Source: Coraliomargaritaceae bacterium (GTDB lineage Bacteria > Verrucomicrobiota > Verrucomicrobiia > Opitutales > Coraliomargaritaceae). Taken from it: a stretch of DNA of 64,000 bases. The position numbers and the translations under genes were made by a program. Of this stretch, positions 24,309 through 59,169 are shown one piece after another. The DNA lies in assembly GCA_965656495.1 (NCBI GenBank), contig CBFHKU010000002.1, positions 96,001 through 160,000 of the forward strand, given 5' to 3'. The notes under the pieces were generated by a model. That model worked only from the letters and a program-made list of their open reading frames with translations. It was not told the origin of the DNA and ran no database searches. Every line of letters begins with the position of its first letter. Positions within the stretch are counted from its first letter, which is position 1.

Positions 24309-24373
24309 TTGGCGTAAAGCGTCACTGTTTTGGCGTAAAATACCAAGCCTTTCGTTTCATAAAATTATACCAT
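24309..24373 (+). promoter_or_regulatory. Regulon promoter cassette, copy 1
   Basis: TTGGCG(24309)-N15-TTGGCG(24330)-N7-CCAAG(24343)-N17-TTA-TACCAT. Confidence 0.8.
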
Positions 24374-24430
24374 TGCAGTATTATTTAGAGACGATCCTGC
24401 AAATGCAGACTCCCAACCCCTTTACCGGCC

Positions 24431-27400
24431 ATGCAAACGAACCCCTCCACCTCTACGTTTCTTCACAAGCCTTTTACCCTCATTGTAGTTGGGTCGCTAT
24501 TACTCGCGTCCATTGCGCAAGCACAAACCACGCTGGACTGGACTGGTCGCATCAGAGGTACTGACTCGGGTCCATGGTCCATTGGAATACAAAATACCGC
24601 CGGCACTCCCTCCTATGGCACTATCAGCGGAGGCGACATTCCGGGGTTGACTGGGTCCTTCAGCGAAACAGACGACGTTTCATTAACCCTCACCCTTCAG
24701 GGGCTCACCAATTTCAATCCAACTGATTTTACCAGCGGAACCTCGATACAAATTAATGGCAATAATAGTGGAGCTTCAATTGGTAGCAACGAGGGCATTC
24801 TGTTCACGCTGGATCTTTCAAATCTGGATGCGGACCAGGGGCTCGAGATCTCGGCATTCACCTCTAATGACAGCAGCTCCCTGACGATTTATTTTAACCA
24901 GGAGCGTATTAGCAACGCCGAGCAATTCAGTGGCCTCACCGCCATCGATGGCGATCAAATCGCCTTTGTCGCGGAAGCTGGCAGCGCACGCCTGCAAACC
25001 CTCACACTCGACATTGTTCCCTATACCCCACCAGTCCCCATCGAGCCGATTCAGACCTTGAACGCAAGCATCACGGACAGCATCACGGGATCAGACCCCG
25101 TCTCCAGTTGGGCAGACCAATCGGGCAACGGTAACAATGCGCTACCAGAGATCGGCAGCGTGGCTTACCCTAGCACTTCACTTTTTGCAAACGACAAACC
25201 CGGTATCGATTTCGGAAGTGGGCGCAATAGTATTGAGCTCTTCTCTGCCTCGGAGTCGGACGCTTGGCTCAATCAGTCGAGCGATTCGAACGGCTTTGCC
25301 ATCCTGGTCTCGTTCAAATGCGAAGAAATCGTAACGGGAGTCTTTAATGACCTCCTGGGTAATTCAACCGACGGCACTACAGGCCTGCAACTCGGCTACA
25401 CTGCAGGCGGACAGATTCAAGTAATCCTGGACGGAACCACTCTATCGGCCGACTCCTCTGCCAACATTCAAGCAGGCGGGAATGCTGTCGTAGCGGTCAA
25501 CTACGATGCCGCCACGAATACCCTCTCCCTCTGGAACTCCATTACCGGTGACTTGAAAAACGCAACTGTAAACGCAGCCGATTTTTCAACGAGTCAGCCC
25601 GTTACCGCCGGGAGTATCAATGCCCCTAGCCAATATATCAACGGGCTTATCGGAGCCATTCAAGTGTTTGATCAATCGCTCGACGAGGAGCTATTCGCGG
25701 ATAAACGCATCGCCTTCACGAGCGACTGGATTCACCGCCCCAACATTATTCTAATCTTTGTCGACGACATGCCCTGGTATGACACTCCGGTTGCCATGGA
25801 TGAGCGCATGCCGAACTCCTATCGTGCCGCCCTGCGTCGCCTCGAAATTGATGGTGTGCCCTACGAGTGGAACATCACGCGTCTCGCTGAGGAGGGCATG
25901 ACTTTCATGAATGGCTACGCGAGTGCACCTCAATGCACCCCAACTCGCGCATCCCTACAAACGGGCCAAACGACCGCCCGCAATAAAGTCGGGGTCAACG
26001 GTGCAAACTGGGGTGAATATAGAGAAACCATTAAAGTAGACGGTGTAGAAGTCCCCAACCCGTTTCCAGTCAAAGAGAATGGCATAGACTTTCCGCTGAA
26101 GGTGCCCATGATTCCTCAAGTCTTGGCACCATTGGGATACAAATGTGCGCATTATGGTAAATGGCATATCGAGCCCGCTCCAGATGTAGCTGGCTATGTC
26201 GCCAGTGATGGTAACACCAATAATGGCGAGGGCACCCCTGACGATCCTAACAATCCGAAGCAAATCACGCTGATAACCGATGATGCGATCAAATTCATTA
26301 CAAAGTGGCACGACGCCAAACACCCCTTCTATATACAACTTTCACACTATGCAGTCCACCGCGAATTCCAGTCGCTGGATACCTCTAAAGCGCTCTTCAT
26401 AAACGACGAAGCGGTCAACAGCAATCAGACAGACGCCACCTACTTAGGAATGGTCTACGACCTGGACCAAGCCTTGGGGCGATTGATGGCGCATCTTGAA
26501 TTGCTGGGAATTTATGACAATACCTACATCATTTTCACCGCTGATAATGGGGACCGTGCGAACGTATCATTCGATGAAATGAAGGAGCCCTTCTATGGAG
26601 ACAAATGGATGCTTTGGCAGCTTGGGATTCGTGTCCCACTCATTATCAGTGGCCCTGGTGTAGTCCAGGGTAGCCGGACTCCATTCAACGCGGTCACTTA
26701 CGATTTCCTTCCGACCTATTTCGAATGGGCCGGCGGCGATCCCAGCACGCTAGAAAATATCGACGGCATCAGCTTAAAAGGACTGCTCGAAGGCGAGAGC
26801 CAATCCGAGGAAAGAGTCAACCGCTCCCTCTACTTCCACTACCCACACTACCGAAACTCGATGCCCATGTCCGCCGTGGTCCAGGGCAAGTGGAAGCTAC
26901 TACGCGCCTGGGATGGAGAAATACGCATCGACGATCATCAGATCAGTGATCGTGACATGCTCTTTGATCTCTCAGTCGACCCCGGCGAATTTCACAACCT
27001 GAACAGCAATGATTCATCGCAAGAATTGAAGGATAAGGCGATCGAACTCGCCAATGATTTGGATATATACCTTGGGGGTGTCGAAGCCTGGACCCCTTTG
27101 GATAATTCAAACGCCTATAATGCGGACGGCGGTGCGACCTTCGACGCTTTAAAGCATGAATCAAACAACGAGTATTCGCTTTTTGAAGGCACACGTGGGT
27201 CTAATTCCGCACTCAAAGACCTCGACAAGTCCCCGATGCAGCACTGGTTCGACAACTGGGTTGTCGATATTGGCGACGCATCAAATGACTTTGAAGGCGA
27301 CGGCTTAACCAACCTCATGGAATATATCCTAGGAACCGACCCCACCGTAGCCGATGCCGAAAACAGTAGTGCGCTCCCAAGGATGGTCAAAAGCGACGAG

Positions 27401-27598
27401 GGAATCGAATTCCAATTCACCACTCGCTACAATCCCGGTGCAGTCTCCGCTAAAGCCCAGCATAAGCAGACGCTTGCCGACGACTGGGAGGACATTACCG
27501 CAACAACCATAGACTTGGGAGCGCTGTTGCAGACAGAGAGCGTTCCGGCACCAACCGGAGACTCCGGTTTCTTTCGCATCAAGATCACAACTCCGTAG
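24431..27598 (+). CDS. Multidomain secreted S1 sulfatase: two N-terminal beta domains (second LamG/ConA-like) + sulfatase + C-terminal module
   Basis: Signal peptide; VSSWADQSGNGN; RPNIILIFVDD, CTPTR, YGKWH; C-terminal DFEGDGLTNLMEYILGTDP...GFFRIKITTP. Confidence 0.88.
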   Translation: MQTNPSTSTFLHKPFTLIVVGSLLLASIAQAQTTLDWTGRIRGTDSGPWSIGIQNTAGTPSYGTISGGDIPGLTGSFSETDDVSLTLTLQGLTNFNPTDFTSGTSIQINGNNSGASIGSNEGILFTLDLSNLDADQGLEISAFTSNDSSSLTIYFNQERISNAEQFSGLTAIDGDQIAFVAEAGSARLQTLTLDIVPYTPPVPIEPIQTLNASITDSITGSDPVSSWADQSGNGNNALPEIGSVAYPSTSLFANDKPGIDFGSGRNSIELFSASESDAWLNQSSDSNGFAILVSFKCEEIVTGVFNDLLGNSTDGTTGLQLGYTAGGQIQVILDGTTLSADSSANIQAGGNAVVAVNYDAATNTLSLWNSITGDLKNATVNAADFSTSQPVTAGSINAPSQYINGLIGAIQVFDQSLDEELFADKRIAFTSDWIHRPNIILIFVDDMPWYDTPVAMDERMPNSYRAALRRLEIDGVPYEWNITRLAEEGMTFMNGYASAPQCTPTRASLQTGQTTARNKVGVNGANWGEYRETIKVDGVEVPNPFPVKENGIDFPLKVPMIPQVLAPLGYKCAHYGKWHIEPAPDVAGYVASDGNTNNGEGTPDDPNNPKQITLITDDAIKFITKWHDAKHPFYIQLSHYAVHREFQSLDTSKALFINDEAVNSNQTDATYLGMVYDLDQALGRLMAHLELLGIYDNTYIIFTADNGDRANVSFDEMKEPFYGDKWMLWQLGIRVPLIISGPGVVQGSRTPFNAVTYDFLPTYFEWAGGDPSTLENIDGISLKGLLEGESQSEERVNRSLYFHYPHYRNSMPMSAVVQGKWKLLRAWDGEIRIDDHQISDRDMLFDLSVDPGEFHNLNSNDSSQELKDKAIELANDLDIYLGGVEAWTPLDNSNAYNADGGATFDALKHESNNEYSLFEGTRGSNSALKDLDKSPMQHWFDNWVVDIGDASNDFEGDGLTNLMEYILGTDPTVADAENSSALPRMVKSDEGIEFQFTTRYNPGAVSAKAQHKQTLADDWEDITATTIDLGALLQTESVPAPTGDSGFFRIKITTP

Positions 27599-27720
27599 GT
27601 CAAACAGTTACCGCTGAAATTACTGGTTTGTTTTGGCGTCGCCAGACACTTGCATCCGCAAGGTCTATCCTTTTCTTAAAAATAACCAATGCTTACCAAC
27701 TCATTCACCCAGAATCCGAG

Positions 27721-27785
27721 TTGGCGGATTTCGCATTCCTTTTGGCGTATAAAACCAAGTAAATCACACTGCTATATGGGATGAT
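27721..27785 (+). promoter_or_regulatory. Regulon promoter cassette, copy 2
   Basis: TTGGCG(27721)-N15-TTGGCG(27742)-N7-CCAAG(27755)-N17-TGG-GATGAT. Confidence 0.82.
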
Positions 27786-27902
27786 AGCTAATTCATAAAA
27801 GCCACCACCCCAAGCCACGCTATTCATCAAAGACGAAGAAGCATTTTTTACTCAAGCTCCAGCGGCGCGGCAACTTCTCACGCAATTTTTAAATCTCACA
27901 CT

Positions 27903-29573
27903 ATGTACATGAATTCCTGCCTCAAATCCACCTGCGGTAATCTGCGGATCATACTCTTAATAGTTGTCACATTCGCCCTATCCATTGCTGGCCTGAGCAA
28001 ACTCGCTGCTAGTGCGACCAAGCAGCCTAACATCATCTTCTTCCTGGTCGATGACTATGATAAGCCCGAAACCAGTCCTTACGGCGGCAATGTGCTCACC
28101 CCAAACCTCGACCGCCTCGCACGCGAGGGCATGCTTTTTAATAATGCCTACGTAACCAGCACTGTGTGCACCCCGTCCCGTTACACGATGCTAACCGGGC
28201 GCTATGCCGGGTCATCGCATTCGAATAAATTCCTCAGCGAATTTCCCTTGGGCACTCAGTCCCTCCCCGCTTTCAATGTCGCCCTCGAAGACGACAATAT
28301 GAACGTCGGCGCGGTCTTAGCAAAGAACGGCTATGCCACTGGCTTTGTCGGAAAATACCACGTTGGCCCCGAACATGATGAGGCCTACGACAAAAAGCAT
28401 GGCATTCACCCAATGCCAAAGAATACCGAATACACCGACGAGCTCAACCAGCACAAATTCAACAACGAAAAGATCTACCGCGAACTAGTCAAAGAGCGCG
28501 GCTTCACCTGGGCGAAAAACATCTACTGGGGCAACATGAAGGCTCCCTTCAAAGGCCACAACCCGGAATGGACCACCGCAGCCGCAGTCGAATTTATCGA
28601 AGAACACAAGAACCAGCCATTCTACCTGCACGTATGTTCGACGCTCCTCCACGGCCCCAACAAAGAATGGCACAATTCATTGACCACGAGAGAACGCATG
28701 AGTGGCGAAGGCATACTGGAACAACCAATCAACAGCCAGCCCTCACGTGAATCCGTCCTCAAACGCGTCAAGGAAGCCGGATTGACTGAAGAAGAAGTCG
28801 GCTACACCTGGATGGACGACAGCGTCGGCGTCCTCCTCAACAAGCTCGATGAACTCGGCATCGCCGACAACACCATCTTCATTTTTGTATCCGACCACGG
28901 CTCCAGTAACAAAGGCTCGGTCTTCCGCACCCGCGCTATGGAAGTCCCCTGCATCATACGCTGGCCAAACGGTATCAAGGCTGGCACCGTCACAGATGAA
29001 CTCATGCAAAGCACCGACTTTGTCCCCACTTGGTTTGATGTGACCGACGCAAAGGTTCCCACAAACTACCCGATGGACGGAACAAGCTTTTCCTCCCTGT
29101 TCAAAACGCCCCACAAGCCCTATCGCGACTATGTTTACGGCGAAATGGGAAGTGCCCGCTCCATCAAGACCAAAGAATGGGGACTCATCACACTCCGCTA
29201 CCCTGCAGAAATTGTCGCCCTCGATGGACGCAAAATCAAACAACTAGGAGGTCTCAGCGGGGGTATTTCACGCGCCGGAAATACACATAAGCACGCTTTC
29301 GAAGCTGACCAACTCTACAACTTCGCGCAGGATCCGGCAGAGCAGAATAACCTGGCATACAATCCAGAATACGCCACTCAGCTCAAGACTATGAAAGAGC
29401 TGCTAACCCTCACCTTAAAGCAGTTCCCCGATCGCCCCTATGGTGAATTGGTCCCTGGTGGCAACGCCCGTGGAGCCGAAGCAAGCGAACCCATCCTCCA
29501 GAGCCTGAAAGAATCTTACACGGGGGAATCCAAGGGTAAAAAAGGAAAAAAAGAGAAAAAGAAAAAGAAATAG
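27903..29573 (+). CDS. S1 sulfatase with poly-Lys C-terminal tail
   Basis: QPNIIFFLVDD, CTPSR, GKYH, SDHG; ends SKGKKGKKEKKKKK. Confidence 0.92.
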   Translation: MYMNSCLKSTCGNLRIILLIVVTFALSIAGLSKLAASATKQPNIIFFLVDDYDKPETSPYGGNVLTPNLDRLAREGMLFNNAYVTSTVCTPSRYTMLTGRYAGSSHSNKFLSEFPLGTQSLPAFNVALEDDNMNVGAVLAKNGYATGFVGKYHVGPEHDEAYDKKHGIHPMPKNTEYTDELNQHKFNNEKIYRELVKERGFTWAKNIYWGNMKAPFKGHNPEWTTAAAVEFIEEHKNQPFYLHVCSTLLHGPNKEWHNSLTTRERMSGEGILEQPINSQPSRESVLKRVKEAGLTEEEVGYTWMDDSVGVLLNKLDELGIADNTIFIFVSDHGSSNKGSVFRTRAMEVPCIIRWPNGIKAGTVTDELMQSTDFVPTWFDVTDAKVPTNYPMDGTSFSSLFKTPHKPYRDYVYGEMGSARSIKTKEWGLITLRYPAEIVALDGRKIKQLGGLSGGISRAGNTHKHAFEADQLYNFAQDPAEQNNLAYNPEYATQLKTMKELLTLTLKQFPDRPYGELVPGGNARGAEASEPILQSLKESYTGESKGKKGKKEKKKKK

Positions 29574-29769
29574 AGCGGAGGCTATCATTTGAGGCAGCCA
29601 AGATAATGACTGATGCAACAGTCCATTACCGCGCGAAATCGACGCAGCACATTACGCTCACTCAGCTCTACTGAATTCGCCTTGCCATTCGATCAGGCAA
29701 AACTGTTGCACGGGATTTTAGCCCACCTTGACCCCTGAGTCATGCAAAACAAATGCTACTGCCGCTAAA
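29571..29769. mobile_element. Degenerate MITE-like element
   Basis: Left end TAGAGCGGAGGCTATCATTTG versus right-end reverse complement TTTAGCGGCAGTAGCATTTG; internal TGCAACAGT/ACTGTTGCA inverted pair. Confidence 0.35.
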
Positions 29770-29954
29770 GCACGTAGCTCCTACTGAGCTCCGCCACCGA
29801 TCCCATAAATACGGCTTACGTTTAACCTGAGCCAAAAAGCACCTCCGAGAGCGCCAGATTGTGCCGGCAATCCGTCTCTAAAACCTCCGCCAAACCCAAA
29901 TTTCGCTCTATTCCGGAAGCTTCCACTCGATATGACAATGAACCCTCTGTTTCG

Positions 29955-30020
29955 TTGGCGGAATTCGCATCTTTTTTTGGCGCAAAAAACCAAGTCAATA
30001 AGGTTGATATATGAGATTAT
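29955..30020 (+). promoter_or_regulatory. Regulon promoter cassette, copy 3
   Basis: TTGGCG(29955)-N16-TTGGCG(29977)-N7-CCAAG(29990)-N17-TGA-GATTAT; the extra spacer base lies in a T7 run. Confidence 0.82.
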
Positions 30021-30223
30021 AAAACTCTTTCATTCATACTCCAAGTGCATCCTTAAGTCATTTGGGTGACGGACAAAAGTCCCATACCAAATCACGATAT
30101 TTAAACCTATCGGGCACCGTTACGAGAACATCGCCAAACTCCACCATAAGCACTCCGACCGTCATCGAAATTCAACCTTACCTAAGCCCGGATAGATCAA
30201 AGTCCTTTTTTGAGAAAACAGTA

Positions 30224-31651
30224 ATGATCCCCGCCCACATCAAACGATTCCTTCTCGCATCTGCAGTTATTGCCCAGCTTTTCACCCCGAGTTTTGCCGA
30301 TCCTAATAAGGACAAACTCAATGTCATCCTGATCGTTGTTGATGATCTTCGAACCGAACTGAACTGTTACGGCGTCGATACAGTGCATTCGCCCAACATC
30401 GATCGTTTGGCTCGGAAAGGCATGCGCTTTGAACATGCCTATGCGCAATATCCGGTATGCAACCCAAGCCGTGCATCCTTTTTGTCTGGCTTGCGACCCG
30501 ATGAAGTCGGCATCACCTCAAACACCACTCCCCTACGCCGGATTCAACCCGACCTCGTCACGCTGCCACAACTCTTTCGCGAAAACGGCTATTACACTGC
30601 CGGGCTTGGAAAAATCTACCACCTTAGCCTTGATGAGACCAATGAGCGTGGAAAAAAAATCCTATTCCAAGATCCGCTGTCATGGGACTACTTTTTTGAT
30701 GCGCTCGGAAAAACGACCCCCGTAGGCAAGAAAGGTGAAGGTCGCAACCTGACGGATGGCAAAGTACCATGGGCACACTGGAGAGCAACTGAAGGCGGTG
30801 ATGAAGACCAGCCCGATGGACAAATCGCAGCAGAGGCAATTCGCGTCCTAGAGAAGTACCATGATGCGCCCTTCTTCATCGGCTACGGAATCCACAAGCC
30901 ACACGACCCCTTTATCGCCCCCAACACTTACTTCGAGCTTTACCCGGAGGGCAGCACTCCGCTGGCGGATCAACCCAAAGACCGCATCAAACCACCCAAA
31001 CTCGCAGTGCCAAACGCTCGAGACTTTGCCAATTTCACAGACCGGGAGCGAAGTGAATTCAAACGCGCCTATCATGCATGTGTTAGCTTTGCAGATGCAC
31101 AAGTTGGTAAACTTTTCGAAACAATGGATCGTCTGGAGCTCTGGGATAACACCATTGTCATCCTAATGGGAGATCATGGTTACCACCTCGGCGAGCATGA
31201 CTGGTGGAACAAGGTGACACTTTTTGAGAACGGCGCTCGCTCCCCCATGATCATTTGGATTCCGGAAGCTGCCGGCATGGGCAGATCGACTGATTCGATT
31301 ATGGAATTCGTCGATCTCTACCCGACTCTCACCGATTATACAGGCCTCAAAGCACCTCATAAACTATCAGGTATCAGCCTGAGACCCGTTCTTGAGGATC
31401 CAAGCGCCCAAACAAAAGTAGCAGCGTACACACAAGTTAATCGTGGTGACCGCGTCGGACGCACAGTCCGCACTGCTCGTTGGCGCTACACCGAGTGGGG
31501 CAAAGATGGAAAATATGGCATCGAGTTATACGACCACAATAAAGACAGCGGAGAATACTACAACTTGGCAGAAAATCCCGAACATGCCCGCCTTCTTAGC
31601 CAAATGAAAAAAGGCCTGGAGCAAGGATTTGGCCCGTACAATGGAGAATAA
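30224..31651 (+). CDS. S1 sulfatase, iduronate-2-sulfatase/choline-sulfatase-like
   Basis: NVILIVVDDLR, CNPSR, GKIYH, HKPHDPF and GDHGYHLGEHDWWNK. Likely start ATG 30224 gives a signal peptide. Confidence 0.9.
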   Translation: MIPAHIKRFLLASAVIAQLFTPSFADPNKDKLNVILIVVDDLRTELNCYGVDTVHSPNIDRLARKGMRFEHAYAQYPVCNPSRASFLSGLRPDEVGITSNTTPLRRIQPDLVTLPQLFRENGYYTAGLGKIYHLSLDETNERGKKILFQDPLSWDYFFDALGKTTPVGKKGEGRNLTDGKVPWAHWRATEGGDEDQPDGQIAAEAIRVLEKYHDAPFFIGYGIHKPHDPFIAPNTYFELYPEGSTPLADQPKDRIKPPKLAVPNARDFANFTDRERSEFKRAYHACVSFADAQVGKLFETMDRLELWDNTIVILMGDHGYHLGEHDWWNKVTLFENGARSPMIIWIPEAAGMGRSTDSIMEFVDLYPTLTDYTGLKAPHKLSGISLRPVLEDPSAQTKVAAYTQVNRGDRVGRTVRTARWRYTEWGKDGKYGIELYDHNKDSGEYYNLAENPEHARLLSQMKKGLEQGFGPYNGE

Positions 31652-31801
31652 TAGCATATATCATGTTGCGTTCCATCAAGTTCCATGCGAGCCATCAAAA
31701 AACAAAAAAAAGACCCTAATTTTCAAATTATGAAACCAATTATATCTTCCTGAAATAAACCCCATTCACTCCCTCCGAGTAAAACCAATCCCCATTGAGA
31801 G

Positions 31802-34800: not shown

Positions 34801-35632
34801 CCTCGTATGTGACGGTAGCTTTAACGTCAACTCAACCTCGGTCGATGCCTGGAGAACTGTACTTTCCGGTGCGCGTGACCTCTCCGTATATCAATCAGGC
34901 CAAAACTCCCCCACCCTTATCCCCAACGCTTCCACTACCTTCCTTCGACACAATCGGCCTAAAGAAGGTTACTGGGATGGCGTCAGTGATCTGGATAAAG
35001 AAGCATGGGCAGGCTTCCGCTCACTCTCCGACGCGAATATTACCGACCTCGCGGAGGCAATTGTTACCGAGCTCAAAGCACGCGTGGCGAATAACAACAA
35101 TCAGCCATATTTATCCCTCGGCGATTTTGTCAATCGAGAGCTAGAGGACTCCGAATCAGGTCGTTGCGGCTTACTGCAAGCCGCCATCAATCGTGCAGCA
35201 CTGAATCAAAGCTTCTTGGATAACAGCCTCTCTACAATTGATAGTAGTAGCCTCAGCAACCCCACGATCGGTAAATTCAACTCACCGGATAATATTCTTG
35301 AAGCATGGATCAGTAATGCGACTGCAAGCATGTCCGCTCCGACCTATCTAATGCAGGCCGACATTTTACAGGCGATTGGCTCCTTCATCAGTGTGCGTAG
35401 TGATACCTTTAAAATACGCTCCTATGGCGATTACAGAGATCCATTAACCGGAGAGGTGCTCTCAGAGGTCTGGTATGAAGCCATTGTTCAACGCATTCCC
35501 GAACCAGTCACTCCGGATGGCGCTTTCACTCCAGCGCAACCCGAATACTGGAATGCCGCCCGCCCTGAAAACCCATTCGGCCGCCGCTACAAGATTATTT
35601 CGATCCGTCAACTCCCGCAAGGTGAGGTATAA
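31802..35632 (+). CDS. Giant pilin-like protein (Verru_Chthon cassette protein A / PilX-GspK-like)
   Basis: Prepilin site RKG|FALVL plus hydrophobic helix with no Glu5; ALGELQKSTGPDQRVSA, FAWWIGDEGTKAKIN, GGLKKDLS, FNVNSTSVDAW, RSDTFKIRSYG and FGRRYKIISIR blocks. Confidence 0.75.
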   Translation: MQKVSHPGTRANPARKGFALVLSLSLMSFILLMLLAFTTLTRVETDSSKTALNQLHAQQQAILGLQLALGELQKSTGPDQRVSAPADLLSATHESRANVVGVWSRNDQLINWLASDARDTNGTLRTDYNTYEMPDEEGSDSIVMVGTGSLTNPNSTAISAGKKIVLNTANTRTLGNNGEQTGRFAWWIGDEGTKAKINRSREQTLNLERSILELSSPSITRPDVLDGLSDIDFFAAKDASSLIKLADLELLEGGKEGIGNPYFHDLTTYSVGLMVDVKNGGLKKDLSLAFEMDDADFNASEFGSGGLNTINAPGVGEVQPIFTIAANGAHGPVWHLLRDYYRLYHLIENPWNDPKLDARVFGPNMNHSRLNMPRKAFNDSAVNIDWQPAIAMAGGKAKLQPHTFGKDEGQALISDQDSITTGRGDQKDANAVIEFSMNPEDSIRQSNGDPLNGGGTMPIMLSANYMPYMMRYLGETGVWFGTKKPKTDDPDDPETMSTLNIASRERFIMHNPYNVTLVHGDIAIDAFGGELGFHLFDKDDKSIKFKEVGKDKDTGNKVLEDVKDGTWMQVSRRKLRMQANELEPGQIITYQANDYGSNNYSAIGTDPTWHHFKTSNKDGNDGWLFEPPVDDANPLTLAVFGSDITNIMRTGSLGNQNEVSFSTLFFSTHLRDGNAQRNDKTIEHRWPMASVIDTAVVLPGSKFDGTDKPSGLAHFYPEATDSKKIYPYYLSNEVNTFTITPADLAIHSTQNNAKPMLTLDVLLKPAEYDRSNTRYPAFTRSNPLAPVKDNKNLLPLDDLTNDTDTLKGGFPKVSPDMAVDYTNSSTMGLTGALNTWGPTDGMIARVDAPVLIELPTSPVLSIGKLQHANLSVHAHMPALAVANSLASVYIPPAKTYETYQNNYGKNRVFYDLSYLMNEALWDGYFFSSLSVPYDDTDFYSPVTGKILETFNNAFETGTTPLPNPRNKLFTIAGEDSKSVEEKLFDGNAIKEDAYKRIAENLVCDGSFNVNSTSVDAWRTVLSGARDLSVYQSGQNSPTLIPNASTTFLRHNRPKEGYWDGVSDLDKEAWAGFRSLSDANITDLAEAIVTELKARVANNNNQPYLSLGDFVNRELEDSESGRCGLLQAAINRAALNQSFLDNSLSTIDSSSLSNPTIGKFNSPDNILEAWISNATASMSAPTYLMQADILQAIGSFISVRSDTFKIRSYGDYRDPLTGEVLSEVWYEAIVQRIPEPVTPDGAFTPAQPEYWNAARPENPFGRRYKIISIRQLPQGEV

Positions 35633-40594: not shown

Positions 40595-40696
40595 GTCAGA
40601 TGGAATTATATTCTATAGAGGTATTTTCTGCCACAAAGCCATGCAGGAGCGGCATCTTTTAATGCTCCGTTTAAACGACTGCGCAATGAGCCCATC

Positions 40697-43900: not shown

Positions 43901-44004
43901 ATTTTGAATCCGTTAAATCTCCATCGGTGAACTCGAAACCCTCGCAGGGCGTCTTCACGCAACGTAGGGGGCTTTCGAGGTCATACTTCTTTTAAACGAT
44001 TTTT

Positions 44005-44069
44005 AGTATCGCACATACAAAAATACATGGCTTGGTATTTTTCGCCAAACTATTGGGAATTTCCGACGA
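44005..44069 (-). promoter_or_regulatory. Regulon promoter cassette, copy 4
   Basis: Minus strand TCGTCG(44069)-N15-TTGGCG(44048)-N7-CCAAG(44035)-N17-TGC-GATACT. Confidence 0.8.
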
Positions 44070-44248: not shown

Positions 44249-46804
44249 CTAGGGGCGTTCGATATAGAAATCCAGTTTAGCACGTCCCCCTACACTCGCA
44301 TCACGCAACTCTCGACGTCCTACAATTCCCATCAACTGCGCATCTGCATCTCCGGTAATTTTCACCTGCGTGCCCTTCGGATTCAGGAAATTTACATTTA
44401 CCGCACGCAGAGATCCTCCGCTCATAAAAATACCTTCACCATGCCGGGTGGCATGTAAATTCTGTAAGAATAAATTACCGGCTTCTGACTCGACCAGTAA
44501 ATCCGGCGAACCCCACACCATGGTATTCACAAGGCTCGCTTCCGCACTGAACTTGGGGCCGACCTTAATCGCAGTCTTATCTTCCGATGACATCGCAACC
44601 AACTCCGAATTGATCATCGTGATACGCTCGCTGCCATGCTCAAAGAATACCCCGACCTTGGAGCCATCCGTTCCATGCCCGTGGGAAATACAATTCTTTG
44701 GACCACGCGACTGATTCTCCGTAAATCGAATTCCGCAAAGCGATCCATAGACAAAGTTCTGATAAAGGAATTGATTCTCGGTTGCTCCGATCGAGATCGC
44801 ATCAAGATTTTCTTTTTGCAACTCCCATAGAAGCTGACCGGTGCCACCATGGATACCGCCTTGAGCTTTATTGTCATAGTAACGATTCCGAGCCGGCGCG
44901 CGCGACCAATAGTGTGGGTTAAACTGCAAGTTACTCAGCTCTCCATCCACACTGCCACCACCAATCCAAACCCCCACTTTCAATGGTGAGCCCGACAGGT
45001 AATCCACATAGTGACGATCACAACGGTAGCTCATCAGATCCAAGTAGCGATAGGGGTTGGCTGCATTAACATCGATAATATAAATGTCGGCTCCCCTGCC
45101 CTGTATTAAGAATGGATACGATTTAACTGCCTCAACGCTCTGATTCGGATAATTAAACGAAACCCCGCGCAGCCCACTGTTGGCTGCCATCAGCACGCTG
45201 GGCGCATCGGAATTCGGGTAAATATGGAGCATACTGCCCCCGCCTTTTGTGTGATGCGGCACATCATGCACGCCGCGTAACTCGACAGCGGAAGGGATGC
45301 GCAGTTGACCATGAATCTCGTAATTCCCACCCGGCAAGAAAACCACCCCACCGCCATTGGCACTTAGCTGGTCCATCGCCTGCTGGATCCGAGTGGTCAT
45401 GTCTTGACCTTTGCGTGACTCGACCACCTTTAATTGGCTGCTACCTGGCTTATAACTACGCTCCGGTTTAAAGGGATAAGGTGGAATCTTAACCAACTCA
45501 GGCGCTTGATCCGACACCTGTAAGATCGAAGCCTTCGCCTTATTGTGGATCATCTGCTTCTCATCCAAAGCCTCGTTTGCGGCCAAGGTAACACCACTGA
45601 CATCTTCACCGATATGGATCGTGGAGGAACGGTCTTTAAACGCGCACCGAACCATGGAGAGGCTTCCATGTTGCAAATCCACCTCACCCCGCTCAATACG
45701 ACATTGCTCCATTAAAACGACGCCGTCGCCACGCGATTCAATCGCTTGCTTACCATACAAAATACAGGTCGAGAACAGCACTACCGAATCAAACTTCGGG
45801 CTTAACAGCACCGCCTGATCCTTCCCCTGGAAAAAGCACTCCGTAAAGATCATGCCATAGGGGTTCGTCTTATCCACCGCGAGTGCGATACCACAATTGC
45901 GCAGAATCAGTCGACGAAACTGCGCATTTGCCGCCCCCCGCTCGCCTTCACTCACCTTGAAACCAATACCGTAACCAGTGATAAAGACACGATCTACATA
46001 CTCCCAATCACTGCGTAGCATGTGAATGCCGACGGCCTCTCGCATCAACCAAGCGGCAAGCGGCCCATTGGCAGCAGGAGCCCCGGTCAATCCACTTTGC
46101 ACCCAATAATCCGGAGAAAAATAGACTTCCTGCAAACGCCCAATGTCCGTTGTCGAGTCGTAGCGAAACCCGGTTTTCAAAGGCGTGCCATATACATTGT
46201 GCACATAATGCAGCTCATTGGCTTGTGGCCCCACTTTGATGCCCAGGTATGGATTGACCAAAGTTAGGTTTTTGAAGGTCGCATTGTTCATACCGACCTG
46301 CTCCAAACAAAACGGATACGGCTGTATATCCGAAGCCGTCTGCTCCGGATACCAGATCGACAAGTCGCGTATACCGCCACTCGCACCCAAAGAAATGGCA
46401 GCAGGAGCCTTCGTTGTCCCCCGGTCGGCATACAGCATCAAGACAGTTCCAAGCACCTGACCTCCGGTTTTATGTGGCGATTGCCACTCTCCCCGAAGGA
46501 TGACCGATTCAGGGATTTTTAAGCGCCCTTTCAAGGCATACTTACCTTCCGGAGCGAACACGGTTCCACCACCCTCTGCAGCCATTGCATCCAAAGCTTT
46601 CTGAAATGCTTGGGTGCTATCCGATCCCCCATTTCGATCCGCACCAAAGTCGGTCACATCGTAGCCGGCAATCACAATGTCTGGAGTCGGATAGCGTGTA
46701 TCGACAATCTGCCAATTCGGGGCTCCTGCCCCATACACCTGCGATACAAAATAAAGGGCCAACAAGAGCCCTTTCCACACAATGCCTAATTTATCGATAC
46801 TCAT
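44249..46804 (-). CDS. Secreted tandem right-handed beta-helix glycosidase/lyase-like protein (Pectate_lyase_3/GH55-type architecture)
   Basis: Two repeats: DVTDFGA..DSTQAFQKALD..GGGTVFAPEGKY and TTRIQQAMD..GGGVVFLPGGNY. Likely start 46804. Confidence 0.78.
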   Translation of the reverse strand: MSIDKLGIVWKGLLLALYFVSQVYGAGAPNWQIVDTRYPTPDIVIAGYDVTDFGADRNGGSDSTQAFQKALDAMAAEGGGTVFAPEGKYALKGRLKIPESVILRGEWQSPHKTGGQVLGTVLMLYADRGTTKAPAAISLGASGGIRDLSIWYPEQTASDIQPYPFCLEQVGMNNATFKNLTLVNPYLGIKVGPQANELHYVHNVYGTPLKTGFRYDSTTDIGRLQEVYFSPDYWVQSGLTGAPAANGPLAAWLMREAVGIHMLRSDWEYVDRVFITGYGIGFKVSEGERGAANAQFRRLILRNCGIALAVDKTNPYGMIFTECFFQGKDQAVLLSPKFDSVVLFSTCILYGKQAIESRGDGVVLMEQCRIERGEVDLQHGSLSMVRCAFKDRSSTIHIGEDVSGVTLAANEALDEKQMIHNKAKASILQVSDQAPELVKIPPYPFKPERSYKPGSSQLKVVESRKGQDMTTRIQQAMDQLSANGGGVVFLPGGNYEIHGQLRIPSAVELRGVHDVPHHTKGGGSMLHIYPNSDAPSVLMAANSGLRGVSFNYPNQSVEAVKSYPFLIQGRGADIYIIDVNAANPYRYLDLMSYRCDRHYVDYLSGSPLKVGVWIGGGSVDGELSNLQFNPHYWSRAPARNRYYDNKAQGGIHGGTGQLLWELQKENLDAISIGATENQFLYQNFVYGSLCGIRFTENQSRGPKNCISHGHGTDGSKVGVFFEHGSERITMINSELVAMSSEDKTAIKVGPKFSAEASLVNTMVWGSPDLLVESEAGNLFLQNLHATRHGEGIFMSGGSLRAVNVNFLNPKGTQVKITGDADAQLMGIVGRRELRDASVGGRAKLDFYIERP

Positions 46805-46894
46805 ACTTTGCCCCTCGCATGGCTCCGAATCACTGTCACCAGCCATACTTCTACAAATCTAATGTGCGCTTCAAGAGTGTTGCTGTAGTCTGAA

Positions 46895-47560
46895 TTACAG
46901 CTCTTTAATTTTGATCTTTCGCCAAGCGACTTGGAAAGGGCCCGTTCCTTTTTTAATACCATGAATCTGTAAGCCAATCAGGCCACTTGGATTGCTCGCA
47001 TGGCGTTCCGCTGGAACAGTCGTCGTGATGACCTCGTTACCGTTGATCCACGTGGTGATCTGATCGCCCTTGGCGACCACACGGAAATGATTCCATTCAC
47101 CATCCTTGAAGAACGTGTGCGCTTTCTTGCTATCTTTCGGGGTCAGCCAGGTTTTCCAGCCCTGCCCATAGATATTGCCCGAACCATTCTTTTCAAAATT
47201 CCGCCCAGTGACTTCCACCTGCGGACCGTAAACCGCACCGTATTTTTCGCCCTTTTTGGGTTCGAACGTCTTCGAGCGAATCTGTACACCCGAGTTCAAT
47301 TCGTTGTCGATCAGCTTGGTCTCAAACTCGAGTTCGAAGTCGGCATAGTCCTTATTGGAACATAAGAATGTAGTGCCCAAGCCGCTCTTCGCAGTTCCAA
47401 TAATTGCACCGTCTTCCACCCGGAAAGAGCCTTCTTTGGTTTTTTCTGTCCAGCCGTCCAGGTTCAGACCATTAAACAGTTCAACCCAGTCGCCTGCACT
47501 CGCGGTTAGGCTGGCGAGTACGCTGAGACTCAGCACGAAGAGAATTTTTGTGTTACGCAT
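46895..47560 (-). CDS. Secreted DUF1080 (3-keto-disaccharide hydrolase-like) protein
   Basis: Signal peptide; LFNGLNLDGW, NSGVQIRS, GPQVE, WNHFRV, GLIGLQIH and WRKIKIKEL. Confidence 0.9.
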   Translation of the reverse strand: MRNTKILFVLSLSVLASLTASAGDWVELFNGLNLDGWTEKTKEGSFRVEDGAIIGTAKSGLGTTFLCSNKDYADFELEFETKLIDNELNSGVQIRSKTFEPKKGEKYGAVYGPQVEVTGRNFEKNGSGNIYGQGWKTWLTPKDSKKAHTFFKDGEWNHFRVVAKGDQITTWINGNEVITTTVPAERHASNPSGLIGLQIHGIKKGTGPFQVAWRKIKIKEL

Positions 47561-47587: not shown

Positions 47588-47652
47588 ATGATCTCACAAA
47601 ACATGAGATCCCGCTTGGTCTAAATCGCCAAAAACCTAGCTTTTTCCGCCAA
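47588..47652 (-). promoter_or_regulatory. Regulon promoter cassette, copy 5
   Basis: Minus strand TTGGCG(47652)-N15-TTGGCG(47631)-N7-CCAAG(47618)-N17-TGA-GATCAT. Confidence 0.82.
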
Positions 47653-48279: not shown

Positions 48280-51200
48280 TCAATTGGCCACCTTCAGGCG
48301 GACCGGCCCCAATAACCCAGCTTTACCCAGCTGGTCATCTTTCTCAAAGATCGGGCAAGTCGCGAAGGTATAGCGATTCTGCTCAGGACGTGGCGTGCCG
48401 TTTTTCAACCAATCCGGCACCGCGCTCAAGATCCCCCGAGTCAATTCAAAGTCCATCGGGTGTTGCTGGTCGCCAATCATTCGATTGCGCCAGAAATTAA
48501 TGACCTCAATCTCCAGCATGTTCTCGCCCGCGATAATGTGGTCTGTGATATCAGCGGCAAAAGGTGGTAACCACGCAACACCGACTTCTTGGCCATTAAG
48601 GATCACTTTAGCGACATCTTTAACGTCTCCCAGCTCAAGCAGTAAGCGCCCATCAGTCGGTTTTTCTATGTCCAAAGTTTTACGGTAAATCGCTTTTCCA
48701 GAGTAATACTGAATCGCCTCCTCCGGACGTTGATCCCATGAATCCAATGCATCAAACGATGCCTGTTCGGGTCCGCCCCATACTGGGTCAAACGAAAGCT
48801 CCCATGGCCCAGTCACCTCTTTGAGCAGTGTTTTATCTGTAGTTAAAAGGGGTGCAGGCTCAACTGAATCAGCTGGCTTAAATACCACAAACTGTGATCC
48901 GAGTTTTTCAAATGGAATGGAAATCAGCGTGCGTCCGTTGGCTTCCTCGAATGGAACGGAATAGATGTAACCCGTTGCTGGGTCCCAGAGTTGTGGCGTT
49001 TTACCACTCACACGAAAACTGCAATCAATGGTTTCCGGCTCTAGAAGATGGCTATTCACAAAGTAGATATCGGTTTCACCATCTAAGCGGTGAATATATT
49101 CAATCGGATCATTTGCCGTATTATAGGCCTTCCACATCGGCGACTGGATACGAGTGAAGTCCACCTTGAAATCGGGCTCTAGGCCGAGCTGCTGTTCGAT
49201 TTCAGCAAAATTGGCCGCTTCAAAAACACGCCCCTTTCCATACTGACCATCATTCCAAAGCTTATCCGCGAGCGCTTGTAGTTGCTCATCACTCTCGGCC
49301 ATCCCACCCGTCAAACCGGGGGTGCGAACCGGCTTAGGCCCGACAACCGTCGCACCAGATTTGACCAGCTTTTCGATCGATTGAAGCACATGCAGCGGCA
49401 TAGTTTGATTATTGGGCAACTGCAGGAAGCGATAGCTCATGCCATTCGGACAGACGATATTACCCGCGGCATCGACCTCGAACAGATCGGTAATCGCACC
49501 GGTATCACAACCATCGAAGTCATAACCTGCTGGCACATTACCGGGTAGTTTATCCCGAAACGGCAGAGTATTGGGAATGTCATCCCCGACGTAATAGACG
49601 AAGTCGCCAACAAAGCGGCCGGAGCGCAGCAAGGCTTCACATCGAGCAAAGTAAGCCGACAGCTTGTCCATATGCTCCCACCAAGTGTTCGTATGCATAC
49701 CGTCAATCGGTCCATACGGCCCCCATGTCAAACCGGGCTTGATGGAATCGTCCAGCGGTTGGAGGCAGGTGCCATGTAGCGAAACCGTAGTGAGCCCCCG
49801 GCAAAAGGCAGCATCGGCAATCGCTTTCATACGTAGCGGTCCAAGCATGTTGTGCGCATAGGAAGTGAAAGATTCGCCGATTATTTGCTGCTCTTCCGGT
49901 TTGATTTCGTTGTAGAGATGCACCGCAGACGAGCCATTTTTGATATCCTGACGAATGCTGTAATGCGGATATTCGGCTTCGACCTCGCGTTTCGATTGCA
50001 CCCAAAATTCGCCAATAGGCACATCCACCTGCTTCTGGTAGTTGACCGCATCATACATGAACTGCTGAGCTCCGCCATTATCGCCATAAGAGCGAAGGCC
50101 ATCCTTGTGAGCCAGCCGAGTGCGTTCGCCCATGTAGTTTTCCGCCATCAAATCGGCAATGGTTCGGCGAAAGTCGCGTAGAAAACGCTCGGATGCATCG
50201 AAACTGCCCAACACATATCCGCCGCATAGAACGGGAAGATAAGGCTTCAATGAATAGCCGCGACGAGCCTGGAATTCTTCAGACATCCGCTGCGTCCAAT
50301 TCTGCGTTTTGCTTTCGTAGCTCTCCGCATAGATCGCCATCGGCTGATGTTCAATGCCTTCAGCACGCGCCATTTTGACGATACGTCCGACCAAGTTGCT
50401 GTAGTTTACCGCAACACCTGAAGGCGAAAGTTTGTCGACCGTCATATACGGTTCATTTTTACTGCCATGTGTATATTTTCCGTTGAAAGTATATCCGATA
50501 CGTAAGATGCGCCAATCACCTTGTGGCAATTCGGCATTCAAACGGCCCTGATCGTCCAAAGCATCGGTCAAATCAATCACTTCATCGAGGGCGATGCCGG
50601 CGCTCTCATTAACAAAACCTCTTTCTTCGAATTGATTCTTCTTTGCAATTCCATTGCCATGACCATGTGGGTAACCACTCCCGTTTTTTAAATGCAGGTT
50701 GTGAATGCCAGCCTCACCACGGAGATCAAAACCAGAGAGGTCCTTAGGAATGGATCGAGCAAATTGTAATCGCACACGCGACGCACGGACCGTCTCTAAG
50801 TTGGAAGCATAAAAAGGTCGGCTCGCCTTACAATTCGTTCCGAACGACACTTCGTTACCAACAGAATTATTATTTTGATCAAAGAACTGAACCGTACATT
50901 CCACCTTAAACTTTACCCCGCTCCCCTGATGAAGGCTCATATAACTAATATCTGTCGGTTGGGATAACACGAAGTCAATATAGTCTCCGCCCTCTGCCTT
51001 ATCGCCTGCTTGAACTGTTAAGCTTTGGCCATTAAATTCGAAGGGCTTATCTTGGTAGAACTTGCTACTCGAAAAGACTTCAACACCCTGAGCCAAAGAG
51101 ACATCATTCGACAATGCGGGTAGCGCGAGGCAGGCGACATCTCGATAGTAAGACTCACGCGTGAGCGGCTGCGAGAGTTGAATGTTGTTTAAGCGACCGC

Positions 51201-51639
51201 CGCCGACGATCTGTTCAGTGTGCACCAGAATCTTCATCGCGTCCTCCAACTCGACCCATGGCCCACCATCAATGTCCCAGAAAGGTGCACTCAGCACGGC
51301 GATCTGCATATCTTTCTCCTCAGCTTCACGGAAGAGATGCAGCAACATCTTGTCCCATTCGGGAGTATTGTAATGCGCTGGCTTTGAAACCATATCTTGT
51401 GGCACCCAAGAACCAAGTGAATGAAACAACTGATACCCCTTGCCACCCTCTTCCTTAAAACGCTCCATATCGCGCGTGATCGCTTCCTCAGTCACGTTTC
51501 CGCTCATCCAACCATGATAGCGCCAGATGCCATACTGCTCAGGAGCCGTCAAAAATCGTTCATTTGGCTCAGCCTGGCCATAGGCCACGCTGGAGAGTAT
51601 CAGGGATATCAAGATTTTGGTTACAGGTTTCATTTTCAT
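48280..51639 (-). CDS. GH106-family alpha-L-rhamnosidase-like glycoside hydrolase
   Basis: HGWMSGNVTEEAITRDME, GGPWV, ESYE..QNWT..EEFQARRGY, DFRRTIADL, DVPIGEFW, ESFT, and C-terminal YYSG/LEIEVINFWRNRMIGD/GLLGPVRL. Likely start 51639. Confidence 0.85.
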   Translation of the reverse strand: MKMKPVTKILISLILSSVAYGQAEPNERFLTAPEQYGIWRYHGWMSGNVTEEAITRDMERFKEEGGKGYQLFHSLGSWVPQDMVSKPAHYNTPEWDKMLLHLFREAEEKDMQIAVLSAPFWDIDGGPWVELEDAMKILVHTEQIVGGGRLNNIQLSQPLTRESYYRDVACLALPALSNDVSLAQGVEVFSSSKFYQDKPFEFNGQSLTVQAGDKAEGGDYIDFVLSQPTDISYMSLHQGSGVKFKVECTVQFFDQNNNSVGNEVSFGTNCKASRPFYASNLETVRASRVRLQFARSIPKDLSGFDLRGEAGIHNLHLKNGSGYPHGHGNGIAKKNQFEERGFVNESAGIALDEVIDLTDALDDQGRLNAELPQGDWRILRIGYTFNGKYTHGSKNEPYMTVDKLSPSGVAVNYSNLVGRIVKMARAEGIEHQPMAIYAESYESKTQNWTQRMSEEFQARRGYSLKPYLPVLCGGYVLGSFDASERFLRDFRRTIADLMAENYMGERTRLAHKDGLRSYGDNGGAQQFMYDAVNYQKQVDVPIGEFWVQSKREVEAEYPHYSIRQDIKNGSSAVHLYNEIKPEEQQIIGESFTSYAHNMLGPLRMKAIADAAFCRGLTTVSLHGTCLQPLDDSIKPGLTWGPYGPIDGMHTNTWWEHMDKLSAYFARCEALLRSGRFVGDFVYYVGDDIPNTLPFRDKLPGNVPAGYDFDGCDTGAITDLFEVDAAGNIVCPNGMSYRFLQLPNNQTMPLHVLQSIEKLVKSGATVVGPKPVRTPGLTGGMAESDEQLQALADKLWNDGQYGKGRVFEAANFAEIEQQLGLEPDFKVDFTRIQSPMWKAYNTANDPIEYIHRLDGETDIYFVNSHLLEPETIDCSFRVSGKTPQLWDPATGYIYSVPFEEANGRTLISIPFEKLGSQFVVFKPADSVEPAPLLTTDKTLLKEVTGPWELSFDPVWGGPEQASFDALDSWDQRPEEAIQYYSGKAIYRKTLDIEKPTDGRLLLELGDVKDVAKVILNGQEVGVAWLPPFAADITDHIIAGENMLEIEVINFWRNRMIGDQQHPMDFELTRGILSAVPDWLKNGTPRPEQNRYTFATCPIFEKDDQLGKAGLLGPVRLKVAN

Positions 51640-51705
51640 CTCTGTTTCTGATGAATTCCAACGACACGAGGGACCTTGCAAAAATCAAACCGTCGAGGAC
51701 TCAAT

Positions 51706-51770
51706 ATTTTCTCATACTCTGAAAAACATAGCTTGGGTTTTTCCGCCAGAACACTGGCGATTTCGGACAA
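51706..51770 (-). promoter_or_regulatory. Regulon promoter cassette, copy 6 (internal promoter before the GH106 gene)
   Basis: Minus strand TTGTCC(51770)-N15-CTGGCG(51749)-N7-CCAAG(51736)-N17-TGA-GAAAAT. Confidence 0.75.
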
Positions 51771-59160: not shown

Positions 59161-59169
59161 GGGGACTCC

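Follow-up and report, generated by a model that had tools for sequence, protein, structure and literature searches.

The analyzed stretch of 64,000 nt (the window) carries six complete copies of a promoter cassette within a sulfatase-rich locus. Cassette 1 (24309–24373, + strand) consists of a distal half-site, a proximal TTGGCG-N7-CCAAG at 24330–24347 and a TACCAT hexamer at 24368–24373 lacking a TG, and its target is a multidomain sulfatase gene (24431–27598, +; 1055 aa, Pfam Sulfatase). Cassette 2 (27721–27785, +), with TGG-GATGAT, stands before a second Pfam sulfatase gene (27903–29573, +; 556 aa), and cassette 3 (29955–30020, +), with TGA-GATTAT, before a gene run at 30062–40594 (+) encoding, in this order, a sulfatase (first ATG at 30224), proteins of 1276 and 301 aa without a Pfam match, a Gfo/Idh/MocA oxidoreductase and a TonB-dependent receptor; their spacing suggests co-transcription. 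On the minus strand, cassette 4 (44005–44069; distal box TCGTCG...CCAAT, TGC-GATACT) faces a Pfam sulfatase gene (41168–43900; 910 aa), cassette 5 (47588–47652; TGA-GATCAT) a DUF1080 (3-keto-disaccharide hydrolase domain) gene and a gene for an 865-aa beta-helix protein (44249–47560), and cassette 6 (51706–51770; TTGTCC...CTGGCG, TGA-GAAAAT) a GH106 alpha-L-rhamnosidase-like gene (48280–51639; Pfam, with matches to PDB 6Q2F and 5MQM). The positions and strands of these six cassettes, together with the four sulfatases, DUF1080 plus beta-helix gene and GH106 downstream of them, agreed with the original prediction. A seventh cassette extends past the window end: the part inside (63984–64000, −) contains TGA-GATATT at 63984–63992 with the −10 at 63984–63989, while its half-sites lie at C2:160010–160048 of contig C2. 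Its targets would be eight co-directional genes (51796–63767, −), encoding five sulfatases, a BT_1002-like beta-helix protein, a Gfo/Idh/MocA oxidoreductase and an alpha/beta-hydrolase. Cassettes 8–11, also on the minus strand, lie outside the window, with proximal hexamers at C2 positions 161095, 162227, 169042 and 176505.

Shuffled sequences had on average 0.08 and never more than one occurrence of the core YTGGCG-N7-CCAAG, of which the window has six. As had been proposed, in each of these six copies CCAAG started 13 nt past the start of the proximal hexamer, and 20 nt separated its end from the downstream hexamer (TACCAT, GATGAT, GATTAT, GATACT, GATCAT or GAAAAT). The consensus first written for the whole cassette, with a (T/C)TGGCG and a TTGGCG box separated by N15, fits only three of the six copies exactly: the period at 29955 is 22 bp (N16), the distal box at 44069 is TCGTCG, and the boxes at 51770 are TTGTCC and CTGGCG at a 21-bp period. 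The cassette is best read as two 18-bp half-sites, TTGGCG-N7-CCA[A/C], repeated at a 21-bp period. A symmetric dimer on TTGG-N9-CCAA was rejected as the main reading because the orientation was single everywhere, the linker was A-rich and the proximal half had no mirror CG.

The genome scan with a site matrix, suggested originally as a check, extended the set beyond the window to 11 sites. The two-half-site matrix, trained on the same 11 sites that it returned, found exactly these in the 2.06-Mb genome (G000), all on contig C2 between 120 and 177 kb, with scores of 40.7–56.1 against 18 at most in the rest of the genome; a matrix built from the six window sites alone already ranked the outside sites high, four of them within its ten best hits and the remaining one at rank 12. 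These five cassettes lie just beyond the window, and all 11 fall within one 57-kb sulfatase locus, are intergenic and face a gene, rather than being spread genome-wide without regard to orientation as foreseen for a mobile repeat. The period was 21 bp in 10 of 11 sites, and NAnnnT stood exactly 20 nt after CCAAG in 11 of 11, including all five outside the window, while each of the other offsets between 12 and 29 had it in at most four. Several distal halves in this genome are near-palindromic, e.g., TGGCG-N5-CGCCA at C2:162227. A generic promoter/terminator scan of 24001–44000 gave no signal above shuffles and did not list cassettes 1–3 in that stretch.

One cassette heads a gene run ending in P0001 (C2:169156–169995, −; 279 aa), a response regulator composed of a REC domain followed by an AraC-type double HTH and located 9 kb beyond the window. 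Its gene overlaps by 11 bp that of the sensor kinase P0004 (C2:169985–173119, −; 1044 aa), which includes Reg_prop (PF07494, E = 1e-10), Y_Y_Y (PF07495, E = 5.5e-7), HisKA and HATPase_c domains, a phospho-His box and a hydrophobic stretch near residue 763; no solved sensor domain of a hybrid two-component system (HTCS) matched it at E ≤ 1e-12. D69, T99 and K121 of P0001 were the same in all 20 close homologues. Its HTH part was closer to HTCS termini (E = 7.5e-18) than to YesN-type regulators (about 1e-10), and in a quick tree its clade nested among fused HTCS. The sensor/regulator split was the same in G009, G677, G669 and G623, and the 15 closest other sensor homologues (1002–1064 aa) had no REC/AraC part, fused forms appearing from 45% identity. 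The best PDB match of P0001 was 12AW (E = 3e-63), the regulator part of the HTCS BT4124 (PMC13292587).

P0001 is the likely reader of the cassette, judging from how the two are distributed among genomes. Regulator matches of at least 60% were present in 3 of 101 genomes of the family, and the exact double site in two (G000 and G009), both belonging to those three. G007, with a 64% regulator, had single sites with decayed distal half-sites and no exact double site; its sensor gene was absent from the syntenic position, and a search of this genome, 80% complete, did not detect it. Among 401 genomes of the phylum, a looser double pattern occurred only in G000, as did a close sensor, with two more sensors at 31% among the best two candidates per genome. 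Among 401 genomes of another class, regulator orthologues of 62–70% were detected in three (G677, G669 and G623), and the predicted co-occurrence held: these three contained six, five and eight double sites, most of them adjoining regulator genes, and the 21-bp period was kept in 24 of 24 other-class sites. G193, a member of the same genus with a 42% homologue, and G742, with a 48% homologue, had no double sites, and reversed-pattern controls gave none; two earlier family searches in another class found a regulator orthologue in 0 of 6 and 0 of 33 genomes. Both recognition helices were nearly invariant among the carriers and different in 39–41% homologues from non-carriers.

A metagenome match obtained in a blind search (L129) sits between two regulator paralogues of 69–70%. 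Of 11 metagenome matches, seven looked like chance, and one (L127) adjoins a different AraC subfamily, so the cassette sequence is not unique to P0001-type regulators. The single-site matches L011, L012 and L015, which have neither a distal half nor the downstream element, were rejected as chance. Because the carriers have in common a locus that was transferred horizontally, they are not independent, and some other factor carried along with it might formally be the reader. The prediction that an activator of the AraC type, encoded outside the window, binds 21-bp tandem repeats that overlap the −35 position was supported, with P0001 tracking the motif across genomes.

Very probably, then, the cassette is the operator-promoter of a polysaccharide-utilization regulon under a naturally split Bacteroides-type hybrid two-component system. 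In the proposed sequence of events, the periplasmic propeller/Y_Y_Y domain of P0004 would bind a breakdown product of a sulfated glycan, probably one containing rhamnose or fucose. P0004 would then phosphorylate Asp69 of P0001, as its conserved residues suggest, and so free the DNA-binding domain. Two P0001 molecules would bind head-to-tail 21 bp apart in adjacent major grooves, each over TTGGCG and CCA(A/C); such tandem binding is strongly supported by the co-occurrence. If the −10 is assigned correctly, a 16–17-nt spacer makes CCAAG(C) share 2–4 bp with the −35 position, and from this geometry the proximal P0001 would recruit the RpoD holoenzyme to promoters that lack a good −35 and have a weak −10, TG-R-GAnnn(T). 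Eleven transcription units would thereby be switched on; besides the sensor and regulator pair, they encode 15 sulfatases, GH106, PEP-CTERM proteins and two beta-helix enzymes. In one marine metatranscriptome, 0.14 of the sampled words were recovered, and 17 pieces were present as contigs, which show no starts, strand or level.

Regions 2.4 and 4.2 of the G000 RpoD were very close to solved SigA/RpoD chains, and region 4.2 is conserved. D246 and D255 of P0001, putative counterparts of RhaS D241 and D250 in the E. coli numbering, were kept in 19 of 20 and 20 of 20 close homologues, respectively. These acidic HTH2 residues of RhaS face K593 and R599 in region 4.2 of sigma-70 (PMC9429829). All 11 G000 sites keep A at −11 and T at −7, like the tRNA promoters of this genome, which accept any base at −12 (C6, A3, G3, T2); the description of the first −10 base as a non-consensus G therefore needs this caveat for G000, while the tRNA promoters of G677 are strictly TAnnnT. 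The proposed pairing of TG with GA stood within the window, where TG accompanies each of the five GA hexamers and is missing from the TA copy, and was imperfect outside it, with one TA site having TG and one GA site lacking it (Fisher p = 0.15 for 11 sites). On the sense strand of about 440 upstream regions, TAnnnT, GAnnnT, TGnGAnnnT and CCAAG were not enriched, giving no sign of a large GA-reading regulon, so that the tRNA promoters had to serve as the source for the housekeeping −10; only TTGAC was enriched (101 versus 64).

It is unlikely that P0001 binds while an ECF or other alternative sigma factor reads the downstream element, or that such a factor reads CCAAG itself. Such a factor would account for G at −12 in 38 and TG in 35 of 41 placed sites, counts that are partly circular since the register was picked among offsets 19–21, and the sites are related. 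It would also account for the other-class sites, where T at −7 was kept in 10 of 24 and absent in 14, many reading TGRGAAAACGT, an element that would be a poor RpoD −10 beside the TAnnnT tRNA promoters of G677; moreover, sigma-70 region-2 matches numbered 34 in G669 and 22 in G623. Against it, no sigma gene lies among the G000 cassettes, the four sigma genes of this genome being all elsewhere; the nearest one in G669 is 16 kb off and the site-bearing contigs of G623 have none, while searches of G677, G669 and G623 did not find the group-2 sigma of G000. The earlier option of a sigma factor reading CCAAG was further weakened because this box has a degenerate twin in the same phase of the distal half-site (CCACT in 16 of 24 other-class sites), and the conservation of A at −11 and T at −7 in G000 likewise argues for RpoD. 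A sigma-54 promoter was rejected, as the TTGC of its consensus is missing at the −12 spacing. CarD, considered as an explanation of the missing T at −7, was not found in five of five genomes, with only an Mfd-sized match.

Less probable still is that P0001 acts as a repressor or fine-tuner blocking the promoter, so that phosphorylation turns the genes down. BT4124, its closest solved relative, footprints on tandem half-sites about 21 bp apart and represses its own locus (PMC13292587), and the cassette covers the −35 region. The cassette promoters, however, lack a TTGAC −35 and have weak −10 boxes, as would suit dependence on an activator; their rigid 20–21-nt spacing would be expected for polymerase contact and is unneeded for occlusion, and the site-bearing region of G000 yielded no second candidate activator.

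Very improbable is a reading of the cassette by the rhamnose-linked cupin-AraC proteins of the window (P0002 and P0003; genes at 5704–6609 and 10535–11497) or by the nearby ROK or LacI protein. These AraC genes neighbor rhamnose genes on the contig that bears the cassettes, and the targets include GH106, but their distribution has largely refuted them: matches to P0002 of at least 51% occurred in 32 of 101 family genomes while the double site was confined to G000 and G009, orthologues of P0003 (61–79%) occurred in G052, G053 and G002, all without a double site, and G007 has single sites yet no match to either protein. Equally improbable are remnants of a promoter duplication or mobile repeat with no dedicated reader, to which the mutually similar CCAAG-to-−10 spacers of the other class point, since all 11 G000 copies are intergenic and gene-facing in one locus, their spacers have diverged while boxes and spacing were kept, and the promoter of the 24431 gene retains its boxes while its −10 alternates between TTA-TACCAT and TGA-GATAAT.

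Regulation of this type is already well known: in Bacteroides, HTCS motifs take the form of direct repeats of 21 bp on average (Ravcheev et al., 2013; PMC3878776). P0001 and P0004 share with these systems (PMC3878776; PMC13292587; PMC11253607) the Reg_prop, Y_Y_Y, HisKA, HATPase, REC and AraC HTH domains, the polysaccharide-utilization-locus setting and the form of the operator, with direct repeats at about 21 bp. In contrast to the single Bacteroides polypeptide, they are encoded by two genes, a split conserved across two classes, and the host is a member of the Verrucomicrobiota, outside the Bacteroidota. An inhibitory latch, C/S-H-I-P...D...K, is given for about 74% of Bacteroides HTCS (PMC13292587); in P0001 (A91-H92-D173-K212) His, Asp and Lys are kept and the Cys/Ser position is Ala. 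The full latch was present in 1 of 20 close split, 14 of 27 distant short and 18 of 23 fused homologues, and in 58 of 79 named loci. AraC at araBAD and RhaS/RhaR at the rha promoters (PMC11983282, PMC9429829) likewise bind two half-sites of 17–18 bp. Those of AraC, direct repeats 4 bp apart with the proximal one overlapping −35 by about 4 bp, are similar to the cassette, whereas those of RhaS are inverted and further apart; the input here would be a receiver that a membrane kinase phosphorylates and not a sugar-binding cupin. YesN-type regulators are free-standing REC-AraC proteins paired with a separate kinase, as is P0001. Their structures (PDB 3LSG, 6SWI) matched its HTH part, but P0001 is far closer to the HTCS termini and its kinase has an HTCS propeller sensor.

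The candidate departures from known HTCS are the conserved split, the changed latch residue and the conserved TG-R-GA promoter element. The detached regulator of a Bacteroides HTCS is monomeric, and its binding to tandem sites is thought to need the tether of the kinase dimer, with the C/S-H-D-K latch holding it off. Tentatively, the present pair may represent a natural undoing of the HTCS fusion, i.e., a clade of free regulators derived from fused ancestors, with Ala in the latch, 21-bp sites, possibly another route of activation (DNA-driven cooperativity, phospho-dimerization or a stable non-covalent kinase-regulator complex), and an unusual promoter in which TG-R-GA is better conserved than T at −7. 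With the split pair, the reason for the HTCS fusion and the filling of tandem half-sites in the absence of a tethered dimer could be tested directly.

Marine Verrucomicrobiota are specialist consumers of sulfated algal polysaccharides containing fucose or rhamnose (PMC8857213). The literature search found no described regulator-operator pair for sulfated-polysaccharide loci of this phylum, and as far as it shows, the pair proposed here would be the first for sulfated-glycan breakdown in the Verrucomicrobiota. Since the motif delimits the regulon, it groups enzymes likely acting on one substrate, and it names in P0004 a sensor whose ligand can be screened for. Named orthologues occur in two cultured species, Pontiella desulfatans and P. 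sulfatireligans, which makes such tests feasible.

All six copies of the promoter cassette were found in the window, at 24309, 27721 and 29955 on the plus strand and at 44069, 47652 and 51770 on the minus strand, with the spacings, -10-like hexamers and TG pattern of the original prediction, and the genes 3' of them encoded, as claimed, four sulfatases, a DUF1080 protein with a beta-helix protein, and GH106. The cassette formula was exact in three of the six: the copy at 29955 had a period of 22 bp, that at 44069 a distal box TCGTCG, and that at 51770 TTGTCC with a proximal CTGGCG. Within the window, which spans C2:96001–160000 of the 2.06-Mb genome G000, the core YTGGCG-N7-CCAAG was counted six times, where 0.08 copies were expected. 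A genome scan with a matrix from the six window sites placed four outside sites in the top ten, but the fifth ranked 12th, under one unrelated match; a matrix covering both half-sites, built from the full set of 11 sites that it then recovered, returned exactly these 11 in the G000 genome (scores 40.7–56.1) and nothing else above 18. All 11 sites were intergenic and gene-facing within C2:120–177 kb, with the first ATG of the faced gene 27–443 nt past the -10, and in each, including all five outside sites, NAnnnT followed exactly 20 nt after CCAAG. The cassette is a genuine, well-delimited regulon signature.

Cassette 7, interrupted by the window end, stood at the head of eight in-window genes. 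With operon limits judged from gene spacing only, the locus encoded 15 sulfatases, GH106, two beta-helix proteins, two oxidoreductases, an esterase-like protein, a TonB-dependent receptor and two PEP-CTERM-like proteins. A PEP-CTERM-like gene remnant (L001:9756-9923, minus strand; 56 aa, 48% identical to its complete counterpart in the same-family genome G009) lay behind cassette 10, which was nevertheless preserved and now faced four sulfatases, 443 nt off. Window 31802–36380 and 37844–40594 covered two proteins without Pfam hit (1276 and 301 aa, the larger with a weak N-terminal Verru_Chthon_A match) and, after them, a TonB-dependent receptor, beside which no SusD-like Pfam hit was present.

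Each half-site of 18 bp consisted of TTGKCG and CCA(A/C) joined by a 7-nt A-rich linker, the half-sites being arranged as a head-to-tail repeat. In the distal half-site of G000 the second box was degenerate (C at +13 in 9/11); in three carrier genomes of another class (G677, G669 and G623) it read CCACT in 16 and its proximal counterpart CCAAG in 23 of the 24 sites, all of which had a period of 21 bp. Because the distal half has this counterpart, CCAAG is the second box of a half-site; given the 16–17-nt spacers of tRNA promoters, the proximal one would overlap the -35 position by 2–4 bp.

RpoD regions 2.4 and 4.2 were conventional in all six carriers examined. Among the 35 tRNAs of G000, 23 had a TTG[AC][CA] box, and 14 of these 23 had NAnnnT at a spacer of 16–17 (shuffle mean 3.2, maximum 9 in 2000). 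Their -12 base (C6, A3, G3, T2) showed no preference for T despite the conventional region 2.4 of RpoD; this organism thus tolerates G at -12, and its housekeeping promoters resemble TTGAC-N16/17-NAnnnT. In G677, 10 of 13 such tRNA promoters read TAnnnT (30 of 51 tRNA loci, 28 distinct). The other-class cassettes, with the -10 register picked among three offsets, had G at -12 in 24/24, TG in 22/24 and T at -7 in only 10/24. Compensation of the non-consensus G by TG fitted the promoter of the 24431 gene, which switched from TTA-TACCAT in G000 to TGA-GATAAT in G009 and G007 (another genome of the family), but the association within G000 alone was not significant (p=0.15). The least settled part is the proposal that TG-R-GA forms a weak extended -10, which would hold basal activity low. 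As for an alternative sigma factor, no sigma genes were present among the cassette sites, and a search of the three other-class carriers did not turn up the group-2 sigma of G000. This short protein (G000:C3:22041, L163; also in G009 and G007) has WIKQSIKR in region 2.4 vs WIRQAITR in RpoD.

The genome had 11 HTH_18 matches, three of them on C2. The expectation that the local AraC genes are not cognate and that the regulator lies outside the window was borne out by distribution: of the window's two cupin-AraC proteins, P0002 had matches in 32/101 family genomes, wider than the motif, and P0003 had 61–79% matches in three genomes without a double site, while P0001, a REC-AraC response regulator beyond the window end, co-occurred with the motif. 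Regulator matches of at least 60% were found in 3/101 family genomes (G000; G009, 90%; G007, 64%), the double site in 2/101 (seven in G000, four in G009) and a looser double pattern in 1/401 phylum genomes, the two samples overlapping. The other class was searched by protein first (six candidates scored per genome), and 7/401 genomes matched, three at 62–70%. The motif was then sought in five of these seven: double sites, most adjoining regulator genes, were present in G677 (6), G669 (5) and G623 (8) and absent from G193 (42% homologue) and G742 (48%), with 0 in reversed-pattern controls. Recognition helices were nearly invariant among carriers and different in two non-carriers. This co-occurrence strongly supports P0001 as the predicted reader of the cassette. 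Orthologous enzymes of the carriers were up to 85% identical across classes, so the carriers represent one moved locus, not independent trials. The 82–85% identity of the locus enzymes to another class, the failure to find the regulator in 6/6 same-genus genomes and a GC of 0.49–0.52 at C2:120000-170000, lower than much of the genome, make horizontal transfer of the sulfatase locus likely.

G007 (L031:15508-16584, L013, L010) kept the regulator, with cassette sites only single or decayed, notably in the distal half-sites. Its sensor gene was absent from the syntenic place between sulfatase and regulator and was not found in this 80%-complete genome, and the regulator had diverged faster (64%) than its neighbours (83–95%). 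In the proposed reading the sites decayed once the sensor had been lost, and the regulon is apparently breaking down. A metagenome scan gave 11 motif matches, of which seven look like chance; of the others, L129 lay between two regulator paralogues of 69–70%, L133 lay before a sulfatase homologue, L135 was nearly identical to cassette 11 and L127 faced an AraC gene of another subfamily. The L127 match (815-880, on a 40%-GC contig) had two almost perfect TTGGCG-N7-CCAAG units in tandem with a 21-bp period, TG, and NAnnnT at +20; the divergent AraC gene that it faced belonged to the Arabinose_bd subfamily, so that another regulator shares this arrangement of sites.

The genes of P0001 (C2:169156-169995, minus; 279 aa) and its sensor kinase P0004 (C2:169985-173119, minus; 1044 aa; Reg_prop, Y_Y_Y, HisKA and HATPase_c) overlap by 11 bp and close the gene run headed by cassette 11, with cassette 10 directly next. 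Together they carry, across two genes, the domain set of the Bacteroides-type hybrid two-component system (HTCS). Related regulator domains were encoded at 79 named loci, nearly all from Bacteroidota: 75 were fused, one was cut by a contig end and three were scored not fused, one of them at threshold. The split was also present in G009, G677, G669, G623 and the closest sensor homologues (Pontiella desulfatans 72%, P. sulfatireligans 70%, an Opitutales MAG 66%), names that make Verrucomicrobiota the probable host phylum. Fused homologues started at 45% identity. In a quick midpoint-rooted tree of 84 regulator parts, 37 short regulators formed a clade (SH-aLRT 99) nested among the fused ones, 'short' being assigned by length and some distant rows possibly being fragments. 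The regulator gene was tandemly duplicated, with a separate cassette in front of the second copy, at G677:C3:46358-48352, G669:C2:322723-324774, G623:C56:22942-25051 and in L129, and G623 had two additional sensor-regulator pairs on other contigs.

Bacteroides HTCS motifs are direct repeats with a mean of 21 bp (PMC3878776), and the studied HTCS BT4124 has footprints about 21 bp apart, a monomeric detached regulator and a repressor role (PMC13292587). By its genes the G000 system behaves like an HTCS regulon, but an HTCS is by definition one polypeptide, with tethering and latch (PMC11253607), and the two-protein pair is therefore not classed as HTCS proper. The BT4124 latch C1262-H1263-D1344-K1383 (PMC13292587) maps to A91-H92-D173-K212 in P0001; the latch Cys/Ser was present in 1/20 close split homologues, which are near kin, vs 23/23 fused homologues and 74/79 named loci, and was mixed (19/27) in distant short homologues. 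The main-text portions of PMC8857213 and PMC6388578 gave no match for regulator or two-component terms, and no prior description of the motif, a split HTCS or such Verrucomicrobiota regulons was found in the open-access literature; supplements, RegPrecise or subscription papers could hold one. The kind of system is already known, the new elements being the division into two genes, the altered latch, the unusual -10 and the group of the host. The geometry and sigma contacts of AraC and RhaS have been described (PMC11983282; PMC9429829).

Motif, geometry, confinement, co-occurrence with the regulator and domain content are direct observations; in the mechanism proposed from them, the sensor kinase would sense a glycan and transfer phosphate to D69 of the regulator, which would occupy both tandem half-sites, activate RpoD in a class II manner and positively autoregulate the regulator-kinase genes. 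A sulfated methyl-pentose glycan is a candidate substrate and ligand, as suggested by GH106 and a BT_1002-like protein encoded in the locus (BT_1002 having fucosidase activity) and by the upstream rhamnose genes. In the rhamnose cluster, weak inverted repeats (window 5628–5682, 17 nt at 76%; 10505–10576, 26 nt at 73%) adjoined the two cupin-AraC genes near rhaA and rhaT and are possible RhaS/RhaR-like sites. The cluster was interrupted by an AAA_14/DUF4143 gene and a Fic-MerR gene (window 6679–7953 and 11589–12605), and a second AAA_14/DUF4143 gene was present at L002:18020-19210.
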